From assembly GCA_963692945.1 (NCBI GenBank), contig OY843585.1, positions 1,500,001 through 1,532,000 on the forward strand: a stretch of DNA of 32,000 bases, given 5' to 3'. Positions 1-16,922 of this stretch are shown piece after piece. A program made the position numbers and the translations under genes. The notes below the pieces were generated by a model, which saw only the letters and a program-made list of their open reading frames with translations, searched no databases and was not told the origin of the DNA. Origin of the DNA: Bdellovibrionales bacterium (GTDB lineage Bacteria; Bdellovibrionota; Bdellovibrionia; Bdellovibrionales; UBA1609). The stretch's first letter is position 1. Every line of letters starts with the position of its first letter.

Positions 1-1538
1 ATGTATTTTTCTTCTGAAAAAGTTTTTCCATTCAAAGACCAATTGTAACTCCCCATATTTCCATTTAATTTCAAATGTATATTACGGCGAGGATATTTAA
101 CATTGTAATTTGTTTTTTTTGTAGATTTTAACATTTTGTAATCTAATTGTTTTTTCAAATTTCTATCTTTTTTAGAATTGCTTTTTTGGGAATGATGGTT
201 TTCATGATTCATAGAAGCACTGTTTGGCTTTCTATCTTTTTTATGCATCTTGTGCTTCCCATGCATCTTATGCTTCTCGTTCATCTTATGCTTCTCGTTC
301 ATCTTGTGCTTCCCGTGCATCTTATGCTTCTCGTTCATCTTGTGCTTCCCATGCATCTTGTGCTCCCCGTGCATCTTGTGACTCTTATGCATTTTATTCT
401 TCTCATGCTTTTTATGCTTTCTATCTTTTTTAGATTTAGAATTCTTTGAAGAATGATTTTGAGAACCATGACTCATTTCATGATTCATCCCATGCATTTC
501 ATGATCCATTTTATAAGGATTAGGTTTTACAAAATCAGGAGCCTTTTCATAGTCACGATTGTTTCCAAAAATCAAACTTCCATAACCAGTTATATCACTA
601 GCTGTAGCACGAAACTCTAAACTTTTTTTAGTTCTTGGAACAGTAAAAGACAAATCATAAGTCTCTCCCATACCTATAAAAATTTCATTGACTTTAACAG
701 GCTGAACATCCACTCCATCTTTTGAAATGACTTTAAAAAAACGATGGTTACCAAGATTCAAATAGAAATGTGTAGAGGAACCTGCATTGATAACTCTTAA
801 ACGAACTCTATCTCCAGGTCGAATCTTAGAAAGAAAAGATTTTTGTTTTCCATTGATTAGAAAAGCATCGTAACCAACATCACTCAAATCCATAACTCCC
901 ATACCTGTCCATTCCCCTTTTAGAAAATCTTTAAAAGAAGATTTTAAAACAGCATCTAATAAAGATGGGAAAAACTTTTTCTTATAAGAGTAATACTCTC
1001 CTTCTTTTTTGAGATTTGCTAAAACCTGACTTGGTTTTTCATTAGTCCAATCACTAATGACAGCCACAATATCATGATCAAAATGAAATCTTGGTCTAGA
1101 ATCTTCAATAACAATCGCACCATAAAGACCCCTTTGCTCTTGTAAATCAGTGTGAGAATGATACCAGTAAGTCCCTGTATGCCTTATAGGAAACCGAAAA
1201 GTAAAAGTTTCATTAACTTGTATAAGTTTATTATTAGAAAAAGCAGGACCATCCATATTCCAAGGAACAAGAATCCCATGCCAATGGATAGTTGTAGGTT
1301 CATTCGTTTTATTTGTCACATGAATAACAGCTTTATCCCCTTTTTTAAATCTTAAAGTTGGAGCAGGAATAGAATCGTTAATAGCAAGAGCATGCTTAAC
1401 CTCTTCACCTGTAAAATTAACAGTCTTATCTTCAACAACTAAATGATAAGTTATTTCTTTTCCGTAAGAAGAAAAAGAAATAAAAATAGAAAATATTAAA
1501 AAGAAAGTAACTTTTAAAGAATCCATGAAACGATACAT
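1..1538 (-). CDS. Multicopper oxidase, CopA/PcoA-like copper-resistance family (N-terminal ~510 aa; C-terminus lies beyond the window start)
   Basis: Absent from the ORF track because the frame stays open to position 1. Manual minus-strand translation from ATG 1538 (alternative ATG 1526) gives MYRFMDSLKVTFFLIFSIFISFSSYGKE, a Sec-type signal. TIHWHGILVPWNMDG and TYWYHSHTDLQEQRGLYGAIVIED follow; these are the first two HxH copper-ligand motifs of three-domain MCOs. A His/Met-rich insert comes next, then ...LKLNGNMGSYNWSLNGKTFSEEKY at the edge. Confidence 0.8.
   Translation of the reverse strand, partial: MYRFMDSLKVTFFLIFSIFISFSSYGKEITYHLVVEDKTVNFTGEEVKHALAINDSIPAPTLRFKKGDKAVIHVTNKTNEPTTIHWHGILVPWNMDGPAFSNNKLIQVNETFTFRFPIRHTGTYWYHSHTDLQEQRGLYGAIVIEDSRPRFHFDHDIVAVISDWTNEKPSQVLANLKKEGEYYSYKKKFFPSLLDAVLKSSFKDFLKGEWTGMGVMDLSDVGYDAFLINGKQKSFLSKIRPGDRVRLRVINAGSSTHFYLNLGNHRFFKVISKDGVDVQPVKVNEIFIGMGETYDLSFTVPRTKKSLEFRATASDITGYGSLIFGNNRDYEKAPDFVKPNPYKMDHEMHGMNHEMSHGSQNHSSKNSKSKKDRKHKKHEKNKMHKSHKMHGEHKMHGKHKMNEKHKMHGKHKMNEKHKMNEKHKMHGKHKMHKKDRKPNSASMNHENHHSQKSNSKKDRNLKKQLDYKMLKSTKKTNYNVKYPRRNIHLKLNGNMGSYNWSLNGKTFSEEKY
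246..389. repeat. 18-bp tandem repeat, 8 good units (plus ~2 degenerate units to ~425), inside the multicopper oxidase CDS
   Basis: The units catcttRtgcttcYcRtK start at 246, 264, 282, 300, 318, 336, 354 and 372. On the minus strand they encode hexapeptides HKM[H/N][G/E]K: HKMHGEHKMHGKHKMNEKHKMHGKHKMNEKHKMNEKHKMHGKHKMH. Confidence 0.9.
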
Positions 1539-1610
1539 TATATCTACCTAGACATATCATGTTTTTTTAAAAAAAAGTAATTGTTTTTTAAACTTAATAA
1601 AAAAATAAGT

Positions 1611-1661: not shown

Positions 1662-3077
1662 TTAACAAGACAATAATTTTTCCATCTCAGGAAAGGTTTT
1701 TTTAAAGTCTGTTTTCCTTATTTTATCCATTTTTATAATATACTCTTGAAACTCTACCATGCGGTTAGACCAATCCTCTGAATGCATAAATTGACACATT
1801 CCTTGAAGTCTTTTAATTCCATAAGGATGCTTTAAAAAGTCTGAATGACCCGACTTATAATTTTTAAGCCAAATGTAAAAATCTTCAAATTTCTTTGTCA
1901 CCTCTTCTTTAAACCACTTAGGGAAAACTTTAACATTCAAATGAGCAGGATGATAAACAAAATGAGTGTCTATAAGCCCTGCACTTTTAGGCCAAACATT
2001 GATTTTTTTAAAATTCTTTCCAATTTTCCATTTTATAAAATCAGGGAGATAATAGATATTTAACATTTGAACGGCACAAGCAATGGTTACAAAAACATTA
2101 TCTGGTGTTTCATCTAACCGTTCTAAATTCTCTTCTAAATGTTGAAACTGACTTGGAAATCTAATGTAATCATTCATTTCAAAAATACTATCTAAAGAAA
2201 AATGAAAAATAACTTTTTCAAAATGATTCCATAAATCAAACAATTTTTCAGGCAATTCAACAGCATTGCTATTATACCTAATCTCAATATTTTTAGCATA
2301 ACCTTTCTCCACACATTTTTCTAAAAGATCATAATGCTCTGGAATAATAGTACTTTCCCCACCTGCAAAGTAAATTTGTTTCATATTTGGAATTTGTTCT
2401 AAAAGTTGTTTCCAAAAAGATTCATTGTCTTTATACCAACTGTAAGAAGCTCCATCAACCTTACCTTTATTATTCCAAACCATAAGTTCTTTAAGAGATT
2501 TATTTTTTATTGTAGGATACAATTTATTCCAATCTTTAACCCACAAAGAACTATCATGAGGGGAACACATTATACATTTTAAATTACATTTAGTACCTAA
2601 ACGAAGATCAACATAGCAGATTTTATCAGGAACAGTTCCATCCTCTTTTGTATTTGTAAGAAGTTCATTCATATCTAAACGATCTATCCATAATTGATTT
2701 TCCCAAGTCCTTTTGGATTGATATCCTGACTTTTCTTCTTTGAAACATTTCGTACAAGAAGGGGGTATTTGACCTCTTAACATATGAGTGCGAATATTTT
2801 TCATATAAGGAGCATTCCAAGCTGTTTTTAAATCCGTATGATTGAAATTAGCAGGTAATCCATCTTTTTTTTTCAAAATACCAACTTCTCCTTTATATTT
2901 TTGATCATTAAATGCATTAGCACTGGAAGCATTGGCCGTGCAGCACACTCTCATATGACCATTAGGGCGAGTGGATAGATGAATCCAAGGTAAAACACAA
3001 AATGTAGGACTTATATCTTCAGAACTAGTAATCTTTTTTTTCATTTTCATAAAATAACCTCTGATTGACTTTAACAC
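1662..3077 (-). CDS. Radical SAM enzyme with an N-terminal Cys-rich (twitch/SPASM-like) auxiliary-cluster module
   Basis: The radical SAM core is LGTKCNLKCIMC (CxxxCxxC) with a GGES SAM-binding-like motif. Upstream of the core are C27-x17-C45C46-TAN and C-T-K-C (PPSCTKCF). The real start may be the ATG at 3050, which is preceded by AGAGG, rather than 3077. With 3077 as start it overlaps the upstream gene by 7 nt. Confidence 0.75.
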   Translation of the reverse strand: MLKSIRGYFMKMKKKITSSEDISPTFCVLPWIHLSTRPNGHMRVCCTANASSANAFNDQKYKGEVGILKKKDGLPANFNHTDLKTAWNAPYMKNIRTHMLRGQIPPSCTKCFKEEKSGYQSKRTWENQLWIDRLDMNELLTNTKEDGTVPDKICYVDLRLGTKCNLKCIMCSPHDSSLWVKDWNKLYPTIKNKSLKELMVWNNKGKVDGASYSWYKDNESFWKQLLEQIPNMKQIYFAGGESTIIPEHYDLLEKCVEKGYAKNIEIRYNSNAVELPEKLFDLWNHFEKVIFHFSLDSIFEMNDYIRFPSQFQHLEENLERLDETPDNVFVTIACAVQMLNIYYLPDFIKWKIGKNFKKINVWPKSAGLIDTHFVYHPAHLNVKVFPKWFKEEVTKKFEDFYIWLKNYKSGHSDFLKHPYGIKRLQGMCQFMHSEDWSNRMVEFQEYIIKMDKIRKTDFKKTFPEMEKLLSC

Positions 3078-3757
3078 TTATCCTTAACATTTTTAATAAA
3101 AAACTTTTTTAACCAATCAAAATTATTAATTTTATTTAAAGCCATTTTATGATCTTTATATTTTCTTCCATATTCTCTACCTTGGTTGGCTCCAAATAAA
3201 ACATAAGAAGCAAAATCTTGATTCTCAGCCTTTTCACACCAAATTTTCAGTCGTTCCTTTGTCTCTGAAGTTTTTTGATGAGAAATATTTTGACTAGAAA
3301 GTTTTACACACTCTCTAAAAGCTCCTCTCCAAGCTTCTAAAGGAGAAGAATTAAACCGAGTGATAGAGGCCATCTGAGAAACAATTTTATAAGGAATTTT
3401 CAAAGAAGTAGAAACATCTAAACTTTTAGCTGCTGACAAAAAAAGCATTTTTGGAAAAAGTTTTATTGCTCCAAAGCCATAAGCCAACCCATTCACAGGA
3501 TTCAAACTTCTCCAAGTGTAAATAGCCTGTTCTATTTTTTGTTCTGGAAGTTGAAATTGAAAATTTTCAAATAAAATCTCATTATCAGCATTCACAACAA
3601 AGAAAAAAGGACTTTGAGAAAGATTGGCACACATTTGATGAGCCAAAGCGATACCTTTAATACCATGAACTCTACGACTTTGAGGAAATTTAAATTTTAA
3701 ATGTTGCCAGTTTTTTTCTCTATAAGTTTCATCAAAAGACAGAAAAAATATATCCAT
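3071..3757 (-). CDS. Hypothetical protein, possibly a GT-A-fold-like nucleotide-sugar transferase
   Basis: A 228-aa ORF tightly packed between the GT2 gene and the radical SAM gene. The N-terminus DIFFLSFDE...RVHGIKGIALAH...FFFVVNADNEI resembles a Rossmann-like beta-strand/DxD-type layout, but I recognise no defined family. Confidence 0.35.
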   Translation of the reverse strand: MDIFFLSFDETYREKNWQHLKFKFPQSRRVHGIKGIALAHQMCANLSQSPFFFVVNADNEILFENFQFQLPEQKIEQAIYTWRSLNPVNGLAYGFGAIKLFPKMLFLSAAKSLDVSTSLKIPYKIVSQMASITRFNSSPLEAWRGAFRECVKLSSQNISHQKTSETKERLKIWCEKAENQDFASYVLFGANQGREYGRKYKDHKMALNKINNFDWLKKFFIKNVKDKC

Positions 3758-3774
3758 ACCCTTACCTAATCATT

Positions 3775-5262
3775 TCATTTGTTATTTATCAAATGCTTAA
3801 ACTCTTCATAACCTTCCAAAGAATGAGTGTTACGAAAAAAAATACCAGCAGACTGACCTAGTAAATAAGACTTTATAAAATGAAAATTCAAAAATTCTGA
3901 AGAACGATACAAATGATAAGTATTGACTTTATTGAAGTGAAATTTACATTTCATCTTAGAAAGCCTCCAACCAAGGTCTGTATCCTCAAAACCATAACAA
4001 GTATAATTTTTACGAAACCAACCTGCTTTTTTAAAAATTTCTTTTTTCAAACATAAAGTATTTGTGGAAATGTATTTCCAAGCCTTGTCTTTCTCATTCC
4101 AATCTTCATCACTTTTATAAAAATCTTCCCAATAGGTATTACCTTTTATAAAAGTATGTGACTTTTTATCTATATCCTCATATTCTTTTGGAGACCTCCT
4201 TTTTAAATGATATCTAGGATGCTGAATAACATCATACCTAGATAATTTTTCACAAATAGAGGAAAGATAATTTCTAGGAATCAAAATATCAGAATCTAAA
4301 AAAGCCAAATACTGACCTTCAGAATTTTTAACACCTACATTTCTAGACAAACCTGCCCTAAACCTATGATCTCCTATACCATATCTTTCTCGCAATCTTG
4401 GAAAATAGAGATATTTAAAATTCATATTAGATAAATAGGTTTGTTTTTTTAAAAGATTTTCTGTCTTATCAGAACTTCCATCATCTACTACAATCACTTC
4501 CCAATTTTTTTTTGGCAAGTCTTGTTTATAAAGATGCTTTAAAACTAAAAGCAAAGATTCCTTACTGTTATAGGAAGGTATAATAACGGAAATATGAATA
4601 TCAGAATGAGGAATGGGGTAAGAAAACACAGGTGTCAATTCGGGTTCCAATTTTAAATCCTCTGGAATAGATAAATTAAATATATCTATTTGAGGTGGAG
4701 GATAATATTTTTCTTTAAGAAGATTATACATATTAACAGAGGTATAGAGCTGAGAGTGTTTCTTATGGTAATAAGGAAAATGAATGTGAAGTTTTTCATG
4801 ATATTTGATAGGCAAAGAATCAATTAAAGATTGAACATCTAAATCCTTATAAGCTGGGATGGTTATCTGAAACTGCGACCTAACCGATTCCAAATAAGAA
4901 AAAGTTTTCGAATCGTAATTTTCCAAGAAAAAATCAACCAATAGATCCGACTCAGAAGTTAGAGAATCTATTATATCTTTCTTAAATTTTAAAGACAAAC
5001 TATGAACTGAAACCACCCAATGAGATGGGGTTTCTTTAATAAAAGAAATTATTTTTTTAATATCAGAATGAAATACAAAATTCCAAGGCAATAGAATCCT
5101 CTCATAATCTAATTTTAAAGATTTTTTAACCTCTTCTTTAAAAGAGAAAAAAGACTTTTCTGAAGAAGATAAACCACCAAATAAAGATAAAGAAACCTCT
5201 TTTGAAAATTGATCACTCAATCTTAAAAGATACCATCTCGGAATTTTTTGAATTTGCTCCAT
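3775..5262 (-). CDS. Two-domain protein: unknown ~220-aa N-terminal domain fused to a family-2 (GT-A) glycosyltransferase
   Basis: The C-terminal half carries GT2 signatures: ISVIIPSYNSKESLLLVLKHL, WEVIVVDDGSSDKT and the DxD motif AFLDSDILIP. I recognise no motif in the N-terminal half. Confidence 0.75.
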   Translation of the reverse strand: MEQIQKIPRWYLLRLSDQFSKEVSLSLFGGLSSSEKSFFSFKEEVKKSLKLDYERILLPWNFVFHSDIKKIISFIKETPSHWVVSVHSLSLKFKKDIIDSLTSESDLLVDFFLENYDSKTFSYLESVRSQFQITIPAYKDLDVQSLIDSLPIKYHEKLHIHFPYYHKKHSQLYTSVNMYNLLKEKYYPPPQIDIFNLSIPEDLKLEPELTPVFSYPIPHSDIHISVIIPSYNSKESLLLVLKHLYKQDLPKKNWEVIVVDDGSSDKTENLLKKQTYLSNMNFKYLYFPRLRERYGIGDHRFRAGLSRNVGVKNSEGQYLAFLDSDILIPRNYLSSICEKLSRYDVIQHPRYHLKRRSPKEYEDIDKKSHTFIKGNTYWEDFYKSDEDWNEKDKAWKYISTNTLCLKKEIFKKAGWFRKNYTCYGFEDTDLGWRLSKMKCKFHFNKVNTYHLYRSSEFLNFHFIKSYLLGQSAGIFFRNTHSLEGYEEFKHLINNK

Positions 5263-5354
5263 AGAAGGCTTTTATTTTATAGTTTTTAAAAAAAATTTCT
5301 AGCTTTTTATAAAAATTATATCTCTTAAACTCTTTTTTATATATAATAACTCAC

Positions 5355-6476
5355 ATGTCTAATCTCTTTTCCAATTACTCTTTTAGTGATATTCCTTTTT
5401 CTGAAATTGAAAGAGTTGGCCAAGCCAGCCTTCTCCATCGGGATTTATTTTGTGTGAGTTGGCTTTTAGGACGCTTTTGTAATTACAAATGCTCCTATTG
5501 TTGGCCTTATGCAAGGTCTTCCAAGCCTGATCATCGCCCTTTAGATCTTCTCATCAAAACAATGACTGATATTAAAAAACAAGCCCGAGAAAGAAATTTT
5601 AATTCTTTCCATTTTTCTTTTAGTGGAGGAGAGCCGACCCTACACAAAGGTTATCTAGATTTACTCCGTTACTATTCAGACGATATATCAAATAGCAATT
5701 ACCAATCTGTTCATATGACAACCAATTTAAGTCCAAGCATAAATTGGTTAAAAAAATATGCTGAGACTGTCAAAAATCTCCATCGTGCAACTATTACAGC
5801 ATCTTTCCATAAAGAGTTTGCAAAAAAGGAAAGTTTTGCAGATAAAATTAATTTTCTTCAAGAACAAGAAATTCATGTGACTATCAATATGGTCATGGTT
5901 CCTGAAAAATTTGATATCCTTTGGGAAGACGCTCTTTACTTTCACGATAGAAAAATAAATGTCACTCTAAAACCTCAAAGTGATGAAAAAGCTCAAACTA
6001 TTGTTTCAGGTTACACAAACACTATGCTTAAACGACTTAAAGAAGGATTGCCTCAAAAAGATTATGTGAATAAGATTTTACAAAAACAAAATAAAAAATC
6101 TTTTCGCCCGAAGGCTCATTTTAAACCTCTGAAACAAAAAGATTCCTCTGGACAAGTGTTTCAAGTAGAACTCACAGATTCTAAAGGAAAAACATGGTAT
6201 ATGGATCAAGCTGAACGATTTAATGCTTTTAATTTTAATCGTTTTCAAGGTTGGGAATGCTCTTCTGGCTATCGCAGCCTAATCATCCGAGAACCCGACG
6301 GTTTTATTAAACGAAGTTACAGTTGTAAAGATTCTCCCTTAGGACATATTGAAAAAGGCTTTCAACTCTTTTCTAAACCTGAACCATGTATAACCAAAAC
6401 ATGTGTTTCTAGTGCGGATAGTAAAATTCCTAAGAGAAAAACAGGAAGTCGTTTAAGTCTCTGGCCATCCAAGTGA
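5355..6476 (+). CDS. Radical SAM enzyme with a C-terminal Cys-containing (twitch-like) extension
   Basis: Contains LLGRFCNYKCSYCWP (CxxxCxxC) and FSFSGGEPTL (the GGE SAM motif). The C-terminus has C-x21-C (CSSGYRSLIIREPDGFIKRSYSC) and CITKTC. The gene sits 92 bp from, and divergent to, the GT2 gene. Confidence 0.75.
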   Translation: MSNLFSNYSFSDIPFSEIERVGQASLLHRDLFCVSWLLGRFCNYKCSYCWPYARSSKPDHRPLDLLIKTMTDIKKQARERNFNSFHFSFSGGEPTLHKGYLDLLRYYSDDISNSNYQSVHMTTNLSPSINWLKKYAETVKNLHRATITASFHKEFAKKESFADKINFLQEQEIHVTINMVMVPEKFDILWEDALYFHDRKINVTLKPQSDEKAQTIVSGYTNTMLKRLKEGLPQKDYVNKILQKQNKKSFRPKAHFKPLKQKDSSGQVFQVELTDSKGKTWYMDQAERFNAFNFNRFQGWECSSGYRSLIIREPDGFIKRSYSCKDSPLGHIEKGFQLFSKPEPCITKTCVSSADSKIPKRKTGSRLSLWPSK

Positions 6477-6480
6477 ATTT

Positions 6481-7560
6481 ATGTATCGTTACTCTGATAT
6501 AAAAGCAGTTCATTTAGAAATCACCTCAAAATGCAATGCCTCTTGCCCTATGTGCTTAAGAAATATATCTGGTGGAAGTACAAACCCTCAACTTCCTTTA
6601 ACAGAACTTTCTTTAAAAGACATCCAACAAATATTTCCTATATCTTTTATTCAACAACTCAACAGGATATATATGTGTGGCAATTATGGAGACCCTATGA
6701 TTGCTAAAGACACTTTAAAAGTTTTTCAGTTTTTTAGAGAAACCAATAAAAATTTAAATCTTTCTATGTTCACAAATGGATCTGGAAGAACAAGAGATTG
6801 GTGGAAGAATCTAGCAAAAGTTATTGATCTTGTCCATTTCAGTATTGACGGTTTAGAAGATACAAATGCTATCTATAGACGAGGAACACATTTTAAAAAA
6901 ATCATGCAAAGTGCTGAAAGTTATATTTCTGCTGGAGGTGATGCCGTTTGGGATTTTATTGTTTTTGAACACAATGAACATCAAATAGAAGAGGCACAAA
7001 AATTATCTCAAAAAATGGGATTCTCTCAATTTATTACAAAAAAGACTGGTCGTTTTTATAGCAATCAAAAATCAAAAGTAAAAACAGAACAATCTGTTTT
7101 AAATTCTAAAAAAGAAATAGAATATTATTTAAGAAGTCCTAAAAATAAAAAATATCAAAATAAATCTCTTCAAAAAGAAGAAGAGTTATCTAAAAAATAT
7201 GGCAGTATTTCTAATTATCTCAATCAAACTCCTATTGAATGTCGTGTTCAAAATGAAAAAAGTATTTATATCAGTGCTGAATCTTTTGTTTTCCCCTGTT
7301 GTTGGACTGCCAATCAACTTTATCCTTGGTATTTTAAAAAAAGGTCTAGTCCTATATGGAATCTTATAGATGAACTCCCTCAAAAAGAACTAAGTCTTTC
7401 TTCAAAAGAAACATCTATTCAAAAAATTGTTGAAGGAGATTTTTTTCAAAAATCAATTCCAAGTAGCTGGTTAGGAAAAAATATTGAAGAAGACAGATTA
7501 AAAGTTTGTGCTAAAACTTGTGGAAAAGAATTCACTCCGTTTTCTGACCAATTCAAATAG
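6481..7560 (+). CDS. Radical SAM enzyme with a C-terminal SPASM/twitch-like Cys-rich domain
   Basis: Contains EITSKCNASCPMC (CxxxCxxC) and CGNYGDPM. The C-terminus has C-x18-CC-WTAN (7297-7314) and KVCAKTCG. The start is 4 nt after the stop of the previous gene. Confidence 0.75.
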   Translation: MYRYSDIKAVHLEITSKCNASCPMCLRNISGGSTNPQLPLTELSLKDIQQIFPISFIQQLNRIYMCGNYGDPMIAKDTLKVFQFFRETNKNLNLSMFTNGSGRTRDWWKNLAKVIDLVHFSIDGLEDTNAIYRRGTHFKKIMQSAESYISAGGDAVWDFIVFEHNEHQIEEAQKLSQKMGFSQFITKKTGRFYSNQKSKVKTEQSVLNSKKEIEYYLRSPKNKKYQNKSLQKEEELSKKYGSISNYLNQTPIECRVQNEKSIYISAESFVFPCCWTANQLYPWYFKKRSSPIWNLIDELPQKELSLSSKETSIQKIVEGDFFQKSIPSSWLGKNIEEDRLKVCAKTCGKEFTPFSDQFK

Positions 7561-7634: not shown

Positions 7635-8312
7635 TCAATTTTCTATTTTTTCTTTAAAATCAGATAAAAAACCATCCATACTTTTATGTTTTGATATCAT
7701 AGAACCATACACTTCTCTATAATTTCTGATAAGATTCAGATCAAGTACTGTAACACTAAATATTTTATAAACACTTTCTTCCTCTAAAATACCTAACTTT
7801 ACTTCTATTGGTTCTCTGTCTTTAAGAGTTACAAAACCAGAAACACTATGTATAGTTTTGTTTTTTCTTGTGGTAGTATTAACTTTAAATTTAATAAGAG
7901 TATTATCAATTGTATCTTTTGATATATCTTTCATTTGAGAATTTACTGTTCGCACCATGACTATTTCAAGATATGTACAAAATTCTAGAAACTGATCTTC
8001 ATTAAATTTTCTAAAATGTTTAGCAAGAACAAGTTTACAGATTTTTTTAGTACCAAAATATTTTCTACTCAATTCTATTAATCCCTCTTCTCGCTCTTTA
8101 ACAGATAGTTTTTGAGTTTCTAGAGAATTAAGAAAGTTAAAAGATTCATCTATAAAAGAATTTACAAAATCTTCAGGGCTTTCATAAGTTGGCTGCTTTG
8201 TTTCAACAACAGCTTCAGATAAAACATTAGAAGTTTCAACAACAACTTCCTGAGCTTGAACAAAAAACCCTTGCATTGAAAATAGAGATAGGAAAAATAA
8301 CTTTTTAAACAT
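7635..8312 (-). CDS. MlaC/Ttg2D-like periplasmic lipid-binding protein (secreted)
   Basis: The signal peptide is MFKKLFFLSLFSMQGFFVQA. YFGTKKICKLVLAKHFRKFNEDQFLEFCTYLE and the C-terminal YKIFSVTVLDLNLIRNYREVYGSMI match the MlaC-family layout (compare WKVYDV-VEGVSLV-NYR). No mlaDEF genes are adjacent. Confidence 0.55.
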   Translation of the reverse strand: MFKKLFFLSLFSMQGFFVQAQEVVVETSNVLSEAVVETKQPTYESPEDFVNSFIDESFNFLNSLETQKLSVKEREEGLIELSRKYFGTKKICKLVLAKHFRKFNEDQFLEFCTYLEIVMVRTVNSQMKDISKDTIDNTLIKFKVNTTTRKNKTIHSVSGFVTLKDREPIEVKLGILEEESVYKIFSVTVLDLNLIRNYREVYGSMISKHKSMDGFLSDFKEKIEN

Positions 8313-8613: not shown

Positions 8614-9156
8614 TCAAAAGAAGAGTATTATGTCGACTGATATATCTGATATTTTATAGCCATCTTTTCTTTTTACAACCACTAAGCTTAAACCAGCTCG
8701 GGGTGGCGATTTACCTTTAATAGTTTTCTTAAAAACTGGTTTAATGTAGCCAGTAAGAGTATAAATTTTACTATCTACATTCACGATGGACTGTGATACT
8801 ACAAGATCCTCAACAACTAAATCTGTAGCACTTGAAGCTATTTTTTTTAAGGATCCAAGACTGCGCAAAACTCTTTCATATTTCTCTTCTATGTCTGATT
8901 CTATATTTTCATACAATATGGCTTTCATTTTTTCCATATCAAAGGTTTCATCATCAAAATAGGCTCTAATTATTGCCATATAATCTTTATTTCTCTCTTT
9001 CACCAATTCTTTTACTTTACCTTTTTTAAACCTATCAACAAATGAAGTTAAAAATGATGATGTAAATTTTCTAATATTTTTATCAGTTCTTTCCTTACTC
9101 GGAGCACAAGATACTGACATTAACAAAATAGATATTAAGAATAATTTTTTAAACAT
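8614..9156 (-). CDS. Secreted protein, probably a lipoprotein; short MlaC-like paralogue (duplication copy 1)
   Basis: The signal MFKKLFLISILLMSVSC has a Cys at a lipobox-like position. The blocks SSFLTS, YFDDETFDM, LTGYI and KRKDGYKISDISV are shared with the 9590-10138 product. An AAGGAG RBS lies upstream. Confidence 0.6.
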   Translation of the reverse strand: MFKKLFLISILLMSVSCAPSKERTDKNIRKFTSSFLTSFVDRFKKGKVKELVKERNKDYMAIIRAYFDDETFDMEKMKAILYENIESDIEEKYERVLRSLGSLKKIASSATDLVVEDLVVSQSIVNVDSKIYTLTGYIKPVFKKTIKGKSPPRAGLSLVVVKRKDGYKISDISVDIILFF

Positions 9157-9207
9157 GGAAAACTCCTTTTTTAAATTTGAACATATAACCAGCCACTCTA
9201 AATTTAG

Positions 9208-9233
9208 AGTTTACCCCCCCCATTTTTTGTCAA
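9208..9233 (-). promoter_or_regulatory. Candidate promoter with a G8 homopolymer in the spacer (copy 1)
   Basis: The minus strand reads TTGACA aaaaat GGGGGGGG TAAACT, a 14-nt spacer. The poly-C on the plus strand is at 9214-9221, about 58 nt upstream of ATG 9156. Confidence 0.35.
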
Positions 9234-9319
9234 TATTAAAATTCATAAATTTATTTTTAATGAAAATTTTTCATTTATATAGATAGATACAGGTCAAAAT
9301 AACCCTTTTTCTCCCATCC

Positions 9320-9580
9320 TTAATCTATATAATCATAGATGTAATTCAAAAAACTTATCAGATTGTTTGAAGTTCCACTCAACATTTTTCCATTAATAAA
9401 AAAAGCAGGTGTTCCAGGAATATCTGCTTTAGCTCCTACCTCAGCCATTTCCTTAACTAGTTGTTTTGTTTTAGAACTCTCTATGCATTTAAAAAAATTT
9501 TGAGAATCAAGATTCACAGTTTGCACCATATCTTTTAAATGTTCAGCGATTTTATCTTTATCAGCTTGAATACTTCTAAA
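9320..9580 (-). pseudogene. Duplicated 3' fragment of the VKOR-DsbA fusion gene (truncated remnant)
   Basis: The segment is near-identical to 10294-10550. The 69-aa ORF MVQTVNLDSQNFFKCIESSKTKQLVKEMAEVGAKADIPGTPAFFINGKMLSGTSN... equals the C-terminal 69 aa of the 395-aa protein except for about 3 residues. Homology stops abruptly at 9580/9581. Confidence 0.8.
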
Positions 9581-9589
9581 ATACTAACT

Positions 9590-10138
9590 TCAATTGAATA
9601 ATAAGGATACCATATTGACTGATATATCTGATATTTTATAACCACTTTTTCTTTTTACAATCTGTAAATTTAAATGAGGTCGGAGTGACTTATCTAGAGC
9701 AGGATTTCCAAGAACTTGAATATAACCAGTAAGAGCATAAACACTTCTATCATTATTCATAATGGACTTCCATGTTACAGGATTCTCAACAACTAAATTT
9801 GTAGCTCCTTCCTTTGAACTCTCTCTACTGATCCATGTTAAAGAGCTCACCTGATAAAGAACTCTTTTAGTTTTACTTTTTATTTTGTCAAGTTCAGTAG
9901 ATTTAATAGCTTCAAACATTTCATCCATATCAAAAGTTTCCTCATCAAAATAGGTTCTAACTATTTCCACTGCATTCTTTCCTCTTTCCAATTTGTTCCT
10001 ATGACCTTTAAAGTTATCAAATACTGAAGTTAGAAATGAAGATGCAAATTCTCTAAGATCTTCATCAACTTTTTTCTCAACTGAAAATGCAGATGCTGAC
10101 ATTAACAAAATAGATATTAAGAATAATTTTTTAAACAT
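9590..10138 (-). CDS. Secreted short MlaC-like paralogue (duplication copy 2)
   Basis: The signal is MFKKLFLISILLMSASA/FS, with no lipobox Cys. It shares the conserved blocks of the 8614-9156 product and is otherwise strongly diverged. A GGAGGGAG RBS lies upstream. Confidence 0.6.
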   Translation of the reverse strand: MFKKLFLISILLMSASAFSVEKKVDEDLREFASSFLTSVFDNFKGHRNKLERGKNAVEIVRTYFDEETFDMDEMFEAIKSTELDKIKSKTKRVLYQVSSLTWISRESSKEGATNLVVENPVTWKSIMNNDRSVYALTGYIQVLGNPALDKSLRPHLNLQIVKRKSGYKISDISVNMVSLLFN

Positions 10139-10181
10139 GGCTCCCTCCTTTTTTTTAAAATCACCACTTTAATTGGGTTAG

Positions 10182-10208
10182 AGTTTACCCCCCCCCATTT
10201 TTTGTCAA
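10182..10208 (-). promoter_or_regulatory. Candidate promoter with a G9 homopolymer in the spacer (copy 2)
   Basis: The minus strand reads TTGACA aaaaat GGGGGGGGG TAAACT, a 15-nt spacer. The poly-C on the plus strand is at 10188-10196, about 50 nt upstream of ATG 10138. Confidence 0.35.
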
Positions 10209-10293
10209 TATTAAAATTCATAAATTTATTTTTAATGAAAATTTTTCATTTATATAGATAGATACAGGACAAAATAACCCTCTTCTCCCATCC

Positions 10294-11481
10294 TTAATCT
10301 ATATAATCATAGATGTAATTCAAAAAAGCCAATAAATGATTTGAAGTTCCACTCAACATTTTTCCATTAATAAAAAAAGCAGGTGTTCCAGGAATATCTG
10401 CTTTAGCTCCTACCTCAGCCATTTCCTTAACTAGTTGTTTTGTTTTAGAACTTTCTATGCATTTAAAAAAATTTTGAGAATCAAGATTCACAGTTTGCAC
10501 CATATTTTTTAAATGTTCAGCGATTTTATCTTTATCAGCTTGAATACTTCTAAATGAAGCTTGCTTTTTAAAAATAAAATCATGAACAAGCCATCCCTTA
10601 CCTTGCTGTTTTGCACAGATAGCTGCTCTACTTAAAATACAAGTTAAACCTGTTCCTCTAAACGATATGATATCGTTGCATGTTTTATCTAAAGGAAAAA
10701 CATAAAAATGAAAAGAAACATCTGGATGATTTTTTAAAAAACTTTTTAAAGCAGGTTGAACTTTTTTACAACTAGGACACATAAAATCAGCAAATTCCAC
10801 AATAGTCATTTTAGATTTGTTAGAACCTGATTTTAAAAGTGGAGGTTTTGAAAAATGAAACACCTCTTCATGTTCCCAATCCAACAAAAGAGCTTCAAAT
10901 TGTTCAACATTATCTTTAATACCAAAATTCACTACAAAAATCATATGTAGAAAAAAAGAAATAACTAAAATAAAAGACCCTAAATAAATACCACTTTTTT
11001 CCCGAACAGAATGAAGGATAACTTTTGTAAAGGACGTGTTTAAAACATCTTTTCTAAAAACCCAAAATAAAGAAGCAAAAGCCACAAAAGACAACAAATA
11101 AGTTATCCAACAGAGAGGACAATAAAGTCTTTCTAAAAAAGAGATAGCCATCATAACTAAAGAAGTAAAAGCAATGAATCCAGACAGATAAACAGAGATT
11201 ATTTTCCAATAAGATGTTTTAAAAAATCCCCATAAGAAAAAAAGTAAAAGGAAAGAAAGGCTGAAATTAAAACCAAATCCAAAATTAGACAAAGAGACAT
11301 TAAAAACTTTAGAATAAGGTGATAGTAAGGCTGAATCACAGTTGATTGTTTCACTGATATTACAAATAGCACTTGCTTGAGCCACACCGGCTGTGAGCTG
11401 GTAGGAACGGTTGGTCAGATAAAAATGTATACAACTTGAAATAAGAGCAGCTACAAAGGCTAAAATGATCCATTTCCTCAT
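10294..11481 (-). CDS. VKOR (vitamin K epoxide reductase homologue) fused to a DsbA/thioredoxin-like domain; disulfide-bond formation
   Basis: The N-terminal half is polytopic membrane. It has the loop cysteines CNISETINC followed by SPYSKVF, and the membrane CxxC LYCPLCW, which together are VKOR signatures. The C-terminal half has the DsbA-type FADFMCPSCKK and GTPAFFINGK. Confidence 0.8.
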   Translation of the reverse strand: MRKWIILAFVAALISSCIHFYLTNRSYQLTAGVAQASAICNISETINCDSALLSPYSKVFNVSLSNFGFGFNFSLSFLLLFFLWGFFKTSYWKIISVYLSGFIAFTSLVMMAISFLERLYCPLCWITYLLSFVAFASLFWVFRKDVLNTSFTKVILHSVREKSGIYLGSFILVISFFLHMIFVVNFGIKDNVEQFEALLLDWEHEEVFHFSKPPLLKSGSNKSKMTIVEFADFMCPSCKKVQPALKSFLKNHPDVSFHFYVFPLDKTCNDIISFRGTGLTCILSRAAICAKQQGKGWLVHDFIFKKQASFRSIQADKDKIAEHLKNMVQTVNLDSQNFFKCIESSKTKQLVKEMAEVGAKADIPGTPAFFINGKMLSGTSNHLLAFLNYIYDYID

Positions 11482-11564
11482 ACTATTTCTTTACTCAATA
11501 AAAGATCATTATGCAAAAGTTTTTTCTTGTTTTCAATCAACACTATAAGTAATAATAACTTAAA

Positions 11565-13277
11565 ATGTCTTTTTCTATCAAAGATCAAGGGTCTTTCTCA
11601 CAAATTAAAAAAGAACTCGCTTCTTCTCTCTCTCAAATTCTAAACTTAGAAGAAAAAGACATTTACTCTCATTTAGAACAACCTATTCAAAAAAAACATG
11701 GTCATTTAGCCCTACCTATATTCCCTTTTTCCAAGCTAAAAAAACAAAACCCAAAAGAATTGGCTGAAGAAATGGCTTTACAAATTAAAAAGAAAAAACC
11801 ACCTACTTTAGAAACCATTGAAACAATTTCTGGTTTCATTAACTTCCATTTTAAGAAAAATTATATAAAATCTCATCTAGAAAAACTTCTCTCTAAAAAA
11901 AATCTAGCCTTTTTTAAAAATTCCAATCAGGAACATTGGGTTATAGATTTTGCTTCTCCCAATGTGGCGAAATACATGAATATAGGACATTTAAGAGCAA
12001 CCGTGATAGGTCAAGCTCTTGTTAATCTATCTCGTCAGTTTGACCATAAAGTCACAACACTGAATCATTTAGGAGATTGGGGAAGTCAATTTGGAAAACT
12101 TTTATGGGCTTATCAAAAATGGCACAAAGAATATGACTTTGAACACAATCCTTTTGAAACTCTTGTTAAACTTTATGTAAGATTTCATAAAGAAGCAGAA
12201 CAAGATCCTAAAAAATTAAAACAAGCTACAGATTTATTTCAAAAATTAGAAGTAGGAGATTCTGTTTTAGAAAAACTTTGGGAAAAATTTGTGGACTTAT
12301 CTTTAAAAAATTATGACAAATACTGGAAATACCTCAATGTAAAACATGATTTAGTCTTAGGAGAATCTTTTTACAGAAAATTTACAGAAGATTTAAAATC
12401 TCGTTTAAAGAAAAAAAATCTACTAGAAAAAAGTGAAGGTGCAGAGGTTGTATTTTTAGAGGATACACCTCCTTGCCTCATTATAAAAAGTGATGGAGCT
12501 TCCACTTATGGAGCAAGAGATTTATCCAGTGCCATTTACAGATTTGAAACTTTAAAAGCTGATAAAAATATTTACATCACAGGAACAGATCAAAAACTTC
12601 ATTTTAAACAAATTTTTCAAACTTTAAAAAAGATGGAGATTCCGAGTGAAAACTGTTTGCATTTATCTTTTGGTATGTATCGCTTTAAGGGTGAAGGTAA
12701 AATGTCCACAAGAAAGGGACAATCTATTTATTTAAAAGATGTCATTCAACAAGCCATTGAAAGAGTACAAAAAATTATTGAAGAACGAAGACCTCAATTA
12801 GACAACAAAGATAAAATTGCGAAACAAGTTGGTATAGGAGCCATTGTATTTAATGATTTGATTAATGACCGTATCAAAGATGTAGATTTTGATTGGAATA
12901 AAGTTTTGGATTTTGAAGGAAACTCTGGCCCCTTTGTTCAATACACCCATGTTCGCTGCCTCAGTTTATTAAAAAAAGTAAAAGGTGATATAAAAAAAAC
13001 ATTTTCTAAAGAACCTTTCACAGAAGAAGAAATGAATTTAATTTGGTTGCTTCTTATCTTTGAAGAATCTGTCTTGCAATCTTTTAAACATTTCAAACCA
13101 CATATTTTAGCAAGGTATCTCTTAGATTTATCTAGAGGGTTCAATCGCTTTTATGCTTCGGAACGCATTTTGGATTCAAATAGAAAAGAAGATCTTATCC
13201 TCCTTGTTGACACTGTTCGTCGCATTCTTCATAAAGGACTGAGTATTTTAAATGTACCAACTCCTTCAGCCATGTAG
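11565..13277 (+). CDS. argS: Arginine--tRNA ligase
   Basis: A 570-aa protein. It has the class-I HIGH-region FASPNVAKYMNIGHLRATVIG, GDWGSQFG, the KMSK-equivalent GKMSTRKG, an anticodon-binding DALR-type C-terminus, and ends in ...PSAM. Confidence 0.9.
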   Translation: MSFSIKDQGSFSQIKKELASSLSQILNLEEKDIYSHLEQPIQKKHGHLALPIFPFSKLKKQNPKELAEEMALQIKKKKPPTLETIETISGFINFHFKKNYIKSHLEKLLSKKNLAFFKNSNQEHWVIDFASPNVAKYMNIGHLRATVIGQALVNLSRQFDHKVTTLNHLGDWGSQFGKLLWAYQKWHKEYDFEHNPFETLVKLYVRFHKEAEQDPKKLKQATDLFQKLEVGDSVLEKLWEKFVDLSLKNYDKYWKYLNVKHDLVLGESFYRKFTEDLKSRLKKKNLLEKSEGAEVVFLEDTPPCLIIKSDGASTYGARDLSSAIYRFETLKADKNIYITGTDQKLHFKQIFQTLKKMEIPSENCLHLSFGMYRFKGEGKMSTRKGQSIYLKDVIQQAIERVQKIIEERRPQLDNKDKIAKQVGIGAIVFNDLINDRIKDVDFDWNKVLDFEGNSGPFVQYTHVRCLSLLKKVKGDIKKTFSKEPFTEEEMNLIWLLLIFEESVLQSFKHFKPHILARYLLDLSRGFNRFYASERILDSNRKEDLILLVDTVRRILHKGLSILNVPTPSAM

Positions 13278-13317
13278 TGCATTTGTGAAATCAATATTTT
13301 TTTGTTATAAGTAGTCC

Positions 13318-14814: not shown

Positions 14815-15100
14815 TTTAACATGAAAATTCTTTTTAATCTATTGATGAACTAAGAGATTATTAACTGACAAAAATATTTTTTATAATGTCTAAAAAAGGC
14901 TAAAAACAATTTTACTAACTATTCATAAATTAAAAAAATCATTTTTATAAATGTAAAGTATTATCTTTGAAGTTTTAATAGTTGCAAAGTTAGATTTGAA
15001 AGAGTAATTTATTTGCTTTTGCGTCATAACAGAAAAATACATTCTTTTCATTTTTTTATAAATTTGGAATAATAATTGCATACTACATGCAGAGGGCTTC

Positions 15101-15685
15101 ATGACGAAAAAAATGATTTATAAAATTTATAAACAAATTACATTTTATCACAAAAAATATTTAAAACAATGTGGTGTAAATCTCCCAAAATTAAAAAACA
15201 ACACAGGTTCTTATACAAAAAATGCCTTAATATTGATTTATTTAAGCCAAGATTACCCTAATACAAAAAAAGTAACAAAGCAGGAATTAACTCAATTCAT
15301 AAGAAAATATTATCCTAATGTAAATGATGTTCAACAAGCAAGACACTTAGGAGCACAACAAGGATGGTGGATTGCGGCAGGAGGAAGAGATAATATTGTT
15401 GTGTCTTTAAAGATAGGAGAATATCAGATTTATACATTGAAAGAACCTTATCCTGGTTTTACAAGAAATAAAAGACAAACAAGCATTTCTAGTTGGGATG
15501 ATATAAAAAAGTATTATTCTTATAGATGTGCAACTTGTGGTTCCAAAGAAAATGAACCTCATTTTCATTGGCCAAAAACAAAAACAAAATTACAGAAAGG
15601 TCACAAAAATCCTGAAAAACCTTTAACTAAACAAAATATTATACCTCAATGTCAAAAATGCAATAGAGCAGATAGAAATAGGTGA
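15101..15685 (+). CDS. HNH (beta-beta-alpha-Me, zinc CxxC...CxxC) endonuclease, putative type II restriction enzyme; possibly C-terminally truncated
   Basis: The C-terminus is YRCATCGSKENEPHFHWP...KGHKNPEKPLTKQNIIPQCQKCNRADRNR, an HNH motif flanked by two CxxC pairs. The gene lies immediately upstream of a DNA methyltransferase. The frame stays open past the TGA at 15683 up to 15829 (see findings). Confidence 0.6.
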   Translation: MTKKMIYKIYKQITFYHKKYLKQCGVNLPKLKNNTGSYTKNALILIYLSQDYPNTKKVTKQELTQFIRKYYPNVNDVQQARHLGAQQGWWIAAGGRDNIVVSLKIGEYQIYTLKEPYPGFTRNKRQTSISSWDDIKKYYSYRCATCGSKENEPHFHWPKTKTKLQKGHKNPEKPLTKQNIIPQCQKCNRADRNR

Positions 15686-15825
15686 GTTTATGACAATAAA
15701 GGAAGAGTCATTAAGCTTGCGAATGCAGATGTATTGAAAAGCTGTTCCAAGTCTGTGCAAAAAAAAACTTATAGAATTTTATATAAAAAATATAAAGGCA
15801 TACACCCCAATAAAATGAGTAAAAA

Positions 15826-16809: not shown

Positions 16810-16922
16810 TATTTACTTGAAGTAAAATCTAGTATATTATAGTTTAAAAATAAGGCTGTTTATTAATTACGAGATGAGTAAAAAATAATTAAGGTGTGGA
16901 CATCGCGACAAGGCATTAATGA

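Follow-up and report, generated by a model that had tools for sequence, protein, structure and literature searches.

Radical SAM enzymes linked to glycosyltransferase-like proteins in a Bdellovibrionota locus related to a module of large phages

A 32,000-nucleotide stretch of a Bdellovibrionales bacterium genome (GenBank assembly GCA_963692945.1, contig OY843585.1, positions 1,500,001 to 1,532,000 of the forward strand; referred to here as the window) carries a compact cluster of five genes. Three encode radical S-adenosylmethionine (SAM) enzymes, named here rSAM A, rSAM B, and rSAM C; one encodes a 228-amino-acid (aa) protein, which we call UNK; and one encodes a fusion protein with a glycosyltransferase family 2 (GT2) domain, which we call GT2f (Table 1). 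We propose, with a probability of roughly 0.45, that the locus encodes a soluble, cytoplasmic pathway for sugar transfer and radical sugar tailoring and that it is a compact chromosomal version of a module of large myophages. An original prediction, made by a model from the sequence of this DNA, had read the genes as a functional unit, and this reading is upheld by linkage that persists through at least five rearrangements and by natural domain fusions.

A four-gene core conserved through rearrangement

Linkage was assessed for loci around UNK or GT2f, with genes called by tblastn and by clustering of open reading frames (ORFs). A scan anchored on UNK, with one genome per species, recovered 42 loci, 29 of which are from Bdellovibrionota. 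UNK, rSAM A, rSAM B, and rSAM C occur together in 11 loci (the window locus, L003, L005, L007 to L012, L021, and L128), with 44 to 80% identity. These core genes are found in at least five orders and orientations, including divergent arrangements with or without GT2f, a fully collinear one, a convergent one, and one in which rSAM A is inverted, and the arrangement of rSAM B directly followed by rSAM C is invariant across the bacterial core loci. Because the core linkage survives rearrangement, it argues for a joint function. Adjacency by chance, which the original prediction had named as its potential refutation, is excluded by the recurrence of the four-gene core in these 11 loci and of all five genes in L128.

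The predicted five-gene unit does recur in L128 with an identical layout, but the conserved unit consists of four genes, namely, UNK and the three radical SAM enzymes, because GT2f adjoins this core only in the closest relatives of the window and lies far away elsewhere. For instance, GT2f orthologs are found among housekeeping genes about 110 kb (L003) and about 60 kb (L001) from UNK. Partial arrangements are also retained: GT2f is followed by UNK, without radical SAM genes, in L129 and L130, and the divergent pair of rSAM B and GT2f is kept in L131 as well as in L128.

Natural fusions join these same partners. UNK is fused to a twitch domain and a Radical_SAM domain in P0381 and to a Radical_SAM domain in P0334, and a 722-aa ORF in L007 joins UNK and rSAM A in frame. 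Also, UNK, a GT2 domain, and a GT2f-like region are fused in L018 (positions 9995 to 13657) and in P0290. These last two proteins, of approximately 1,220 to 1,250 aa, are composed of UNK, a GT2 domain, a hydrophobic linker, a radical SAM-like domain with an intact CxxxCxxC motif, and a second GT2 domain, so that the transferases of the pathway are, in effect, within one polypeptide.

The gene directly upstream of UNK varies. In L003, a 224-aa gene with a metallo-beta-lactamase fold (positions 9290 to 9964) lies between rSAM B and UNK, in the slot that GT2f occupies in the window, and in L009, L011, and L021, the gene immediately preceding UNK is a UNK paralog (UNKp). This position seems to be exchangeable. 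Two further neighbors of GT2f, a DUF4953 protein and a protein of approximately 340 aa, were considered as partners and set aside, as they reflect the local synteny of two related genomes only. A Csx12-type Cas protein (more than 1,800 aa; L127, positions 14163 to 17503) is encoded a few kilobases from the GT2f ortholog of a related Bdellovibrionales chromosome.

Three radical SAM enzymes with additional conserved cysteines

The original prediction described three radical SAM enzymes that differ from one another and carry extra cysteine motifs, and this description is correct, because the motifs and the extra cysteines are conserved and mutual identity is low. Each enzyme has its own CxxxCxxC motif (CNLKCIMC at residues 164 to 171 of rSAM A, CNYKCSYC at residues 42 to 49 of rSAM B, and CNASCPMC at residues 18 to 25 of rSAM C), which is 100% conserved in homologs, and homologue alignments revealed four further conserved cysteines in each. 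In rSAM A, these are C27, C45, C108, and C111, which are conserved, along with C164, C168, and C171, in 100% of 29 homologs. Conservation is likewise 100% for C42, C46, C49, C302, C324, C345, and C350 of rSAM B and for C18, C22, C25, C273, C343, and C347 of rSAM C, in which C254 is conserved at 93%. Local identity among the three enzymes is at most about 21%, with no significant BLASTP alignment between rSAM A and rSAM B; profile comparison places all three on a common radical SAM core.

Read from the sequence, the cysteine spacing of rSAM A is C27-x17-C45...C108-x2-C111, which we take to resemble the twitch pattern of BtrN. In all three enzymes, the four extra cysteines form a pattern consistent with one fully cysteine-ligated, twitch-type auxiliary [4Fe-4S] cluster. 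The auxiliary cluster of BtrN, which oxidizes an aminocyclitol, has four cysteine ligands (PMC9012708).

All three enzymes match the general radical SAM model PF04055 above its cutoff (51.2 bits for rSAM B and 42.8 bits for rSAM C versus 29.5 bits). Among these enzymes and UNK, only rSAM A fits a named family. It is a full-length member of NF033640 (N_Twi_rSAM), with the N-terminal four-cysteine twitch domain and the CxxxCxxC motif (422.8 bits versus a cutoff of 170 bits; E = 1.5e-126; residues 23 to 468 aligned with positions 1 to 397 of the 398-position profile), and the SPASM model PF13186 matches residues 27 to 111, upstream of the radical SAM core, at 22.1 bits versus a cutoff of 21.5 bits. 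NF033640 is a sequence-defined subfamily for which we found no experimental function, and a literature search on N-terminal twitch radical SAM enzymes yielded no characterization; membership, therefore, gives no reaction for rSAM A. Neither rSAM B nor rSAM C matches PF13186, though four C-terminal cysteines are conserved in each. These two pass the general PF04055 model only and miss every curated NCBIfam equivalog widely, including MoaA, PqqE, and MftC; rSAM C additionally matches phrog_21308 with 81 bits. A phmmer search of the PDB returned no match for rSAM A and only marginal viperin-like (7n7h; E = 1e-3) and GDGT-MAS (7tol; E = 3e-3) matches for rSAM B and rSAM C.

Several candidate assignments were rejected on their scores. 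These are the STM4011 family for rSAM B (58.3 versus 200 bits), a tungsten-cofactor maturase for rSAM C (67.0 versus 380 bits), and prokaryotic viperin (pVip, NF038283) for all three (19.3, 45.7, and 42.6 bits for rSAM A, rSAM B, and rSAM C, respectively, versus 180 bits). Among the defense systems in PADLOC, only a weak similarity to pVip was found, and it is confined to the N-terminal core.

UNK, a GT-A-like hub protein

UNK is the hub gene of the module. A word-indexed search found 649 homologs, and an exhaustive search expanded the family to 1,584 representative clusters, 1,240 of them at E values of 1e-10 or below. The original prediction listed an unknown protein, and, indeed, UNK has no match in Pfam, NCBIfam, PHROGs, or PADLOC and no sequence match in the PDB, profile search included. 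Structural comparison and a DxD-like motif revise this description, and UNK is probably a second glycosyltransferase-like protein of the locus. An alignment of 42 sequences has 26 invariant positions, including D58 in the motif VVDGDNE. In a Foldseek search of the PDB with an AlphaFold2 (AF2) model of UNK (pLDDT 91.7), all neighbors were GT-A glycosyltransferases (SunS, RmlT, WrtF, K4CP, polypeptide GalNAc-transferases, and PBCV-1 A64R), with probabilities of approximately 1.0 but with E values of about 1e-4 and TM scores of 0.35 to 0.45. In the viral structure library BFVD, two matches were true homologs, from uncultured Caudovirales, and the others were GT-A enzymes of viruses. On the basis of its fold and motif alone, UNK is probably a divergent GT-A-like protein that uses a nucleotide sugar.

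Some members of the family are much longer. P0253 (1,735 aa), P0264 (1,524 aa), and P0246 (1,225 aa) are repeat proteins with 16, 10, and 7 matched stretches, respectively, and have a full UNK domain at the C terminus. In the long forms from phages, P0072 and P0091, the N-terminal half is duplicated.

GT2f and its radical SAM relic

The original prediction recognized GT2f as a two-domain protein, and its GT2 catalytic domain is genuine. Residues 222 to 467 match PF00535 at 76.2 bits versus a cutoff of 23.3 bits, and D323 and D325 (in LDSD), as well as E426 and D427, are invariant in 47 homologs. The best Foldseek match is K4CP (E = 4e-15; 21 to 24% identity), followed by TarS, TarP, and RmlT, and the nucleoside glycosyltransferase AvpGT is also among the matches. 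Altogether, 808 homologs of GT2f were found, mostly in Bdellovibrionota.

The description of the N-terminal domain (residues 1 to 215) needs revision. This domain matches no family, and its AF2 model (pLDDT 94, pTM 0.92) has six regular beta-alpha units. Where the window protein reads SDQFSKEVSLSLFGG, 14 of 120 homologs have CxxxCxxC, and there are no cysteines anywhere in the window domain. An hhalign comparison aligned the domain in register, from the N terminus, with the rSAM C profile (P = 2.9e-4, versus P values of at least 0.06 for controls). Moreover, three homologs that retain the cysteines have sub-threshold, in-register matches to PF04055 (the best being P0221, with E = 5e-4), and the 1,220-aa protein of L018 includes a complete GT2f-like half, in which CTSSCSYC is in register. 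We conclude from these alignments and models that the N-terminal domain of GT2f appears to be derived from a radical SAM domain and has degenerated; without cysteines, it cannot be an active radical SAM enzyme in this genome. A cysteine-less radical SAM domain on a GT2 protein is a clear case of a radical domain kept after the loss of its cluster.

Phage versions of the module

The original prediction could not see a link to phages, and we find that the locus is the bacterial version of a module that is widespread in them. A distant UNK homolog, P0072, is encoded on a phage-like contig directly after tail-fiber genes and is followed by an N-terminal-twitch radical SAM gene. A scan of IMG/VR identified at least 579 viral contigs that encode UNK relatives.

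Co-occurrence was counted in 50 viral UNK loci of at least 12 kb. Genes of the rSAM A type are present in 34 of these (best identity to the window protein, 62%), those of the rSAM C type in 30 (47%), and those of the rSAM B type in 15 (56%); GT2f is present in none. Two viral gene families, for which identity to a window protein is not applicable, are similarly frequent, with c5 (approximately 250 aa) in 34 loci and c4 in 28. The viral loci have a fixed backbone, in which one to three copies of c14 (a Gly/Ser/Thr-rich, fiber-like family) are followed by c15, c4, UNKp, and UNK, and a variable tail, which contains c5, rSAM B, rSAM C, and one to five rSAM A paralogs. Sometimes the tail adds c74 (UDP-glucose/GDP-mannose dehydrogenase family), c25 (NAD epimerase/dehydratase), or a 2-oxoglutarate-Fe(II) oxygenase. 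The c4 profile matches glycogenin, a family 8 glycosyltransferase (GT8), with an E value of 7e-8; c14, c15, c4, UNKp, c5, and c16 belong to no PHROG, Pfam, or NCBIfam family. The recurrence of a gene for a T4 gp15-like tail-sheath stabilizer in 11 viral loci identifies their contigs as those of T4-like myophages. In a set of 50,697 deposited phage genomes, the module was found in that of the Ralstonia jumbo phage RsoM2USA alone, as ORF345 to ORF355; all of these are annotated as hypothetical, and the genes for the tail tube and sheath immediately precede them. Literature searches on radical SAM enzymes with glycosyltransferases in jumbo phages, and on radical SAM-dependent glycosylation in phages, found no characterization.

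The copy in the window belongs to an ordinary bacterial chromosome and has no phage, GT8, or fiber genes nearby. It is homologous to the UNK/radical SAM part of the phage module and is not itself an instance of the phage cluster.

Three observations concern other parts of the viral loci. First, a QueC-like protein of 260 aa recurs in 11 of them, and in L093 (positions 6353 to 7135), its gene lies inside a run of radical SAM genes. It has a sub-threshold match (24 bits in Pfam) to the C-terminal part of QueC, and an assignment to QueC was rejected in NCBIfam (18 versus a cutoff of 150 bits); judged by this similarity, it may belong to the module as a PP-loop or zinc-ribbon enzyme. Second, c5 was guessed from its motifs to be a methyltransferase, but no match in Pfam, NCBIfam, PHROGs, or the PDB bears this out, and c5 stays unassigned. 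Third, a contig labeled as a giant-virus metagenome-assembled genome (L091; IMG/VR GVMAG-S-1035414-12_000001) carries UNK, UNKp, c4, c5, c25, and an rSAM B-type gene in the same layout as phage contig L088. It is either a misassigned phage contig or evidence of the module in giant viruses.

A proposed pathway and the case against it

The original prediction suggested radical modification of a glycan, lipid, or small molecule. A glycan or small-molecule role fits the GT-A-like fold of UNK and the GT8 protein, dehydrogenase, and epimerase of the phage loci; the lipid part of the suggestion fares poorly, as discussed below. In the pathway that we propose, UNK, and GT2f where it is present, would transfer a sugar from a housekeeping nucleoside diphosphate (NDP)-sugar to an acceptor. 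Each radical SAM enzyme would cleave SAM reductively to yield a 5'-deoxyadenosyl radical, which would abstract a hydrogen from a C-H position of the sugar, with the auxiliary cluster serving as an electron conduit that takes up or returns an electron. By analogy with BtrN, HygY, and NeoN, the product might be a keto, epimerized, or deoxygenated/dehydrated sugar. Tailoring could take place at the level of the nucleotide sugar, ahead of transfer, or on the sugar once it has just been transferred, and the fusions of UNK to rSAM A suggest a direct hand-over between the transfer and radical steps. The cysteine-less domain of GT2f would probably serve for binding or docking and not for catalysis. 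The acceptor would be encoded outside the locus; the position of the module in phages suggests a receptor-binding fiber or another surface structure, and this is the weakest step of the proposal. Also, as the number of rSAM A paralogs varies among phages, the product may be diversified combinatorially, which would fit a host recognition region.

Several observations weigh against this proposal. The similarity of UNK to glycosyltransferases is a fold-level match, with the low TM scores given above and no counterpart in Pfam or PDB sequence searches, and the window protein reads VVNADNE where the family reads VVDGDNE, such that an asparagine replaces the first aspartate of the DxD motif. GT2f, which has the genuine catalytic domain, is a clade-specific accessory, linked but dispensable, outside the widely conserved core. 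UNK is not strictly dependent on radical SAM partners, since pairs of UNKp and UNK without any radical SAM gene adjoin metH in seven metagenome-assembled genomes. A Pfam scan of window genes shows neither a gene for NDP-sugar synthesis nor a recognizable acceptor, and gene position in phages is the one line of evidence for a fiber acceptor. Finally, the known substrates of twitch and SPASM radical SAM enzymes also include nucleotides (MoaA), peptides (SkfB), and cofactors, and the fold therefore does not specify a substrate.

A broader claim is possible, although we consider it doubtful. In its full form, UNK and its radical SAM partners would constitute a previously unrecognized system, common to large myophages and Bdellovibrionota, that couples GT-A sugar transfer directly to radical chemistry, in some members within a single UNK-radical SAM or radical SAM-GT2 polypeptide, and makes hypervariable, radically tailored glycans on receptor-binding fibers or surfaces. 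This would also be the function of the radical SAM arrays that have been on record for T4-like phages (CP220, pelagimyophages, and cyanomyophages) since 2010.

These arrays of large phages have been unexplained since 2010 (PMC2853527), and they recur in the host recognition regions of abundant marine myophages (PMC7029224). The locus described here offers a minimal, four-gene chromosomal version, a hub family in UNK, fusions that point to the partners, and a cultured phage in RsoM2USA, and the question thus becomes testable. If the proposal is true, the small set of radical SAM reactions that act on carbohydrates would be enlarged, and there would be a new source of glycan diversity in recognition between phage and host and, possibly, between predator and prey.

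Alternative readings

We judge it unlikely that the module modifies nucleotides or nucleic acids, either by making a hypermodified nucleotide or base, for instance, a DNA or RNA base that is glycosylated or altered by radical chemistry and protects phage DNA, or by making a viperin-like nucleotide antimetabolite, with the bacterial copy acting on the cell's own nucleic acids or in conflict with phages. The weak matches of rSAM B and rSAM C to viperins (48 to 51 bits for pVip in PADLOC, 43 to 46 bits for NF038283, and an E value of 1e-3 for 7n7h) would accord with this idea, but the scores are far under 180 bits and reflect the shared radical SAM core only. ThyX, NUDIX, and the weak QueC-like protein recur near viral modules; however, ThyX and NUDIX are common in T4-like phages, where their proximity may be incidental, and the QueC-like match is far under its cutoff. 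Likewise, phage CP220, which has rSAM C-type arrays, has fully 7-deazaguanine-modified DNA, but the deazaguanine pathway of CP220 requires only QueE. The first GT2 domain of the L018 fusion has a sub-threshold match to a TET-associated glycosyltransferase, and AvpGT is among the fold matches of GT2f. Against these hints, none of the genes linked to the module encodes a base-hydroxymethylase, DpdA, TET/JBP, or a kinase, and the phage copies of the module lie among genes for tails and tail fibers, along with the UDP-sugar dehydrogenase, the epimerase, and the GT8 protein.

There is also only a small chance, in our estimation, that the module, instead of decorating a surface macromolecule, makes an unattached small molecule, for example, a metabolite resembling aminocyclitols or aminoglycosides or a cofactor that carries a sugar, with the radical SAM enzymes acting on a cyclitol or sugar scaffold as BtrN does and the glycosyltransferases glycosylating it. 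In favor of this reading, the twitch architecture with a putative four-cysteine auxiliary cluster resembles BtrN, all of the proteins are soluble, and the locus has no acceptor gene, flippase, or polymerase. The window, however, contains no scaffold-forming cyclase, aminotransferase, or amidinotransferase and no exporter or resistance gene. Analogous clusters in CP220 and cyanophage S-SCSM2R do pair radical SAM enzymes with an amidinotransferase and a gene of a sugar-aminotransferase family. GT2f is weakly similar to the MftF and arsenosugar glycosyltransferase models, although the cutoffs for MftF/MftC and for the arsenosugar pathway are missed widely. The tail-fiber position and the hypervariable number of radical SAM paralogs fit surface diversification better.

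Maturation of a peptide made by the ribosome and modified after translation (RiPP) or of a glycopeptide, in which the radical SAM enzymes would cross-link or epimerize a peptide and GT-A enzymes would glycosylate it as in SunS-type glycocins, is improbable. The glycocin S-glycosyltransferases SunS and ThuS are the top Foldseek matches of UNK, but this similarity is that of the generic GT-A fold (TM score of about 0.44). Many SPASM and twitch radical SAM enzymes are peptide maturases, and weak NCBIfam matches to such families exist, but the maturase models score 17 to 34 bits against cutoffs of 265 to 855 bits. No small ORF that could encode a precursor peptide is conserved across 12 diverse core loci; the small-ORF matches shared by L009, L011, and L021, of which L009 and L011 are near-identical, were discarded as alternative frames of real genes. 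Nor did Pfam and NCBIfam searches find a peptidase, a transporter, or a RiPP recognition element (RRE)/PqqD-like domain. Because rSAM C begins at its cluster motif and the N terminus of rSAM A is the twitch domain, there is no room for an RRE in these proteins.

Least credible of all is modification of membrane lipids handled by the neighboring MlaC-like proteins, as the weak matches of rSAM C to GDGT-MAS (7tol; E = 3e-3) and of rSAM B to Tes (28.7 bits, versus a cutoff of 450), which would make the radical SAM enzymes distant relatives of tetraether synthases, are at the superfamily level only, the proteins lack membrane segments, the MlaC-family genes that flank the cluster are not conserved beside the other core loci, and the main home of the module is in phage structural regions.

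Layout of the locus and other features of the window

An ORF scan confirmed all five tightly packed genes of the original prediction, in two divergent units, at their coordinates (Table 1). The spacing given for them also stands for the 92-bp spacer, the 17-nucleotide gap between GT2f and UNK, and the 4-nucleotide gap between rSAM B and rSAM C, but probably not for a 7-nucleotide overlap of UNK and rSAM A. That overlap hinges on the GTG start of the longest ORF, at position 3077. Because the ATG at position 3050 has an AGAGG Shine-Dalgarno sequence 7 nucleotides upstream and coincides with the N termini of homologs, it is more likely, as read from the sequence, that rSAM A has 462 aa and is separated from UNK by 20 nucleotides.

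Table 1. Coordinates of the cluster in the window
Feature	Position	Strand	Length	Description
rSAM A	1662-3077	-	471 aa by longest ORF; 462 aa from the probable true start (ATG at 3050)	NF033640 family; N-terminal twitch domain
UNK	3071-3757	-	228 aa	Large unannotated family; predicted GT-A glycosyltransferase-like fold; DxD-like motif
GT2f, whole	3775-5262	-	495 aa	
GT2f, catalytic GT2 domain	3862-4599	-	Residues 222-467	PF00535
GT2f, N-terminal domain	4618-5262	-	Residues 1-215	Cysteine-less beta/alpha domain, probably radical SAM derived
GT2f/rSAM B divergent intergenic region	5263-5354		92 bp	AT-rich; presumed promoters of both units
rSAM B	5355-6476	+	373 aa	C-terminal four-cysteine twitch-like region
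rSAM C	6481-7560	+	359 aa	C-terminal twitch-like region

A promoter consensus scan of the divergent intergenic region gave matches not above chance, and the scan for promoters and terminators fell below the shuffle expectation and was uninformative. The G+C content is 29 to 34% over the cluster and similar across the remaining window, which gives no indication that the cluster was imported recently. Hydrophobic segments are absent from all five cluster proteins. The flanks are as originally described, with a multicopper oxidase on the left, which runs off the end of the window, and a MlaC-family protein (positions 7635 to 8312) on the right. Elsewhere, the window consists of ordinary chromosomal sequence, with argS, prpD, an FtsI-type penicillin-binding protein, rsmH, and a DD-carboxypeptidase. 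In agreement with the original prediction, none of the window genes covered by a Pfam scan is an NDP-sugar, flippase, exporter, or peptidase gene, nor does any of them encode a fiber protein or flagellin.

Other features of the window lie outside the cluster. The multicopper oxidase gene (positions 1 to 1545, minus strand) has a long, low-complexity insert rich in Met, His, and Lys, especially at about positions 147 to 449, with repeats of the type HKMHGKHKMNEK, which is typical of copper-binding segments. Positions 8614 to 10554 contain a tandem duplication with a unit of approximately 975 bp. It holds two paralogous lipoprotein-like genes of 180 and 182 aa (positions 8614 to 9156 and 9590 to 10138), and a 69-aa ORF (positions 9320 to 9529) copies the C terminus of a VKOR-DsbA fusion gene (positions 10294 to 11481), with 95% nucleotide identity over 284 nucleotides. 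Finally, positions 15826 to 18782 encode an N6/N4 DNA methyltransferase (positions 15826 to 16809) followed by a 619-aa ORF without a Pfam match; this region could be a restriction-modification or other island, and the stretch from 17 to 18 kb is the most AT-rich part of the window (G+C content of 22%).

Comparison with known systems

The original prediction could not map the cluster to a characterized pathway, and neither could we: curated equivalog cutoffs are missed, sequence searches of the PDB gave no close relative, and literature searches yielded no characterization. The pairing of a radical SAM enzyme with a GT2-type protein is shared with mycofactocin (MftC/MftF) and arsenosugar (ArsS and a TIGR04283 glycosyltransferase) biosynthesis; MftC is of the SPASM type, and GT2f weakly matches both glycosyltransferase models. 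Both pathways were rejected as identities of the locus, mycofactocin with scores of 51.7 versus 280 bits for MftF and 18 to 28 versus 265 bits for MftC and with no MftA, MftB, MftD, or MftE found, and the arsenosugar pathway with 54.6 versus 182 bits for TIGR04283 and 20.7 versus 300 bits for ArsS and with no ArsM.

Virion glycosylation in viruses, as represented by A64R of chlorovirus PBCV-1, the glycosyltransferase of mycobacteriophage Che8, and the glycosyltransferase arrays of giant viruses, is similar in that soluble viral GT-A enzymes are encoded with structural genes. A64R (2p6w) and the Che8 glycosyltransferase are fold neighbors of UNK, at the fold level only (TM scores of 0.36 to 0.37). 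To our knowledge, the chlorovirus, Che8, and giant-virus systems contain no radical SAM enzymes.

BtrN, HygY, and NeoN are enzymes that act on aminocyclitol or aminoglycoside sugars, one as a dehydrogenase and the others as epimerases, and BtrN and HygY are of the twitch type. Their likeness to the enzymes studied here consists of a radical SAM core, an auxiliary cluster with four cysteines, which is putative in the enzymes studied here, and gene clusters that include glycosyltransferases; the substrates of BtrN, HygY, and NeoN are small, soluble, and sugar-like. However, there is no detectable sequence relationship, the twitch domain of rSAM A is N-terminal, and the window has no aminoglycoside scaffold genes, such that BtrN, HygY, and NeoN serve as a working analogy only.

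Campylobacter phages CP220 and CPt10 have 11 to 12 radical SAM genes, described as "highly unusual," including an exchangeable module of five (Timms et al. 2010, PMC2853527). CP220 is a cultured T4-like phage. Its cluster (L132, positions 66412 to 81119) follows baseplate genes and contains five radical SAM genes, an amidinotransferase, two GT-A-fold proteins annotated as nucleotide-diphospho-sugar transferases, and a PAP2 phosphatase. Among the CP220 proteins, gp083, gp084, and gp080 match the rSAM C profile with 103, 84, and 68 bits, respectively, and gp081 weakly matches rSAM B; no relation of the GT-A proteins gp088 and gp089 to UNK, c4, or GT2f was detected. CP220 has neither an N-terminal-twitch rSAM A nor UNK, whereas its amidinotransferase and PAP2 phosphatase are absent from the window. 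In cyanophage S-SCSM2R, an amidinotransferase and an aminotransferase of the 3-amino-5-hydroxybenzoate (AHBA) synthase family are reportedly paired with a radical SAM enzyme, and the CP220 and S-SCSM2R clusters may be sister modules.

For the viral homologs, a likeness exists to the host recognition cluster of pelagimyophages and cyanomyophages, in which "radical SAM cassettes" occur together with GT8 glycosyltransferases and genes for lipopolysaccharide sugars (Zaragoza-Solas et al. 2020, PMC7029224) and whose glycosyltransferases, the authors speculate, modify the host O-chain. The module of the viral homologs likewise follows tail-fiber-like genes in T4-like myophages, and it combines GT8 proteins and a UDP-sugar dehydrogenase with variable radical SAM cassettes. 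The cassettes in PMC7029224 have no defined families, linkage, or function, and the likeness drawn here follows their published description.

Thus, radical SAM tailoring coupled to glycosyl transfer is already known in kind. What is new is the UNK family, the fusions of radical SAM domains with GT2 domains and with UNK, the cysteine-less radical SAM relic, and a distribution that is dominated by viruses and has a chromosomal foothold in Bdellovibrionota.

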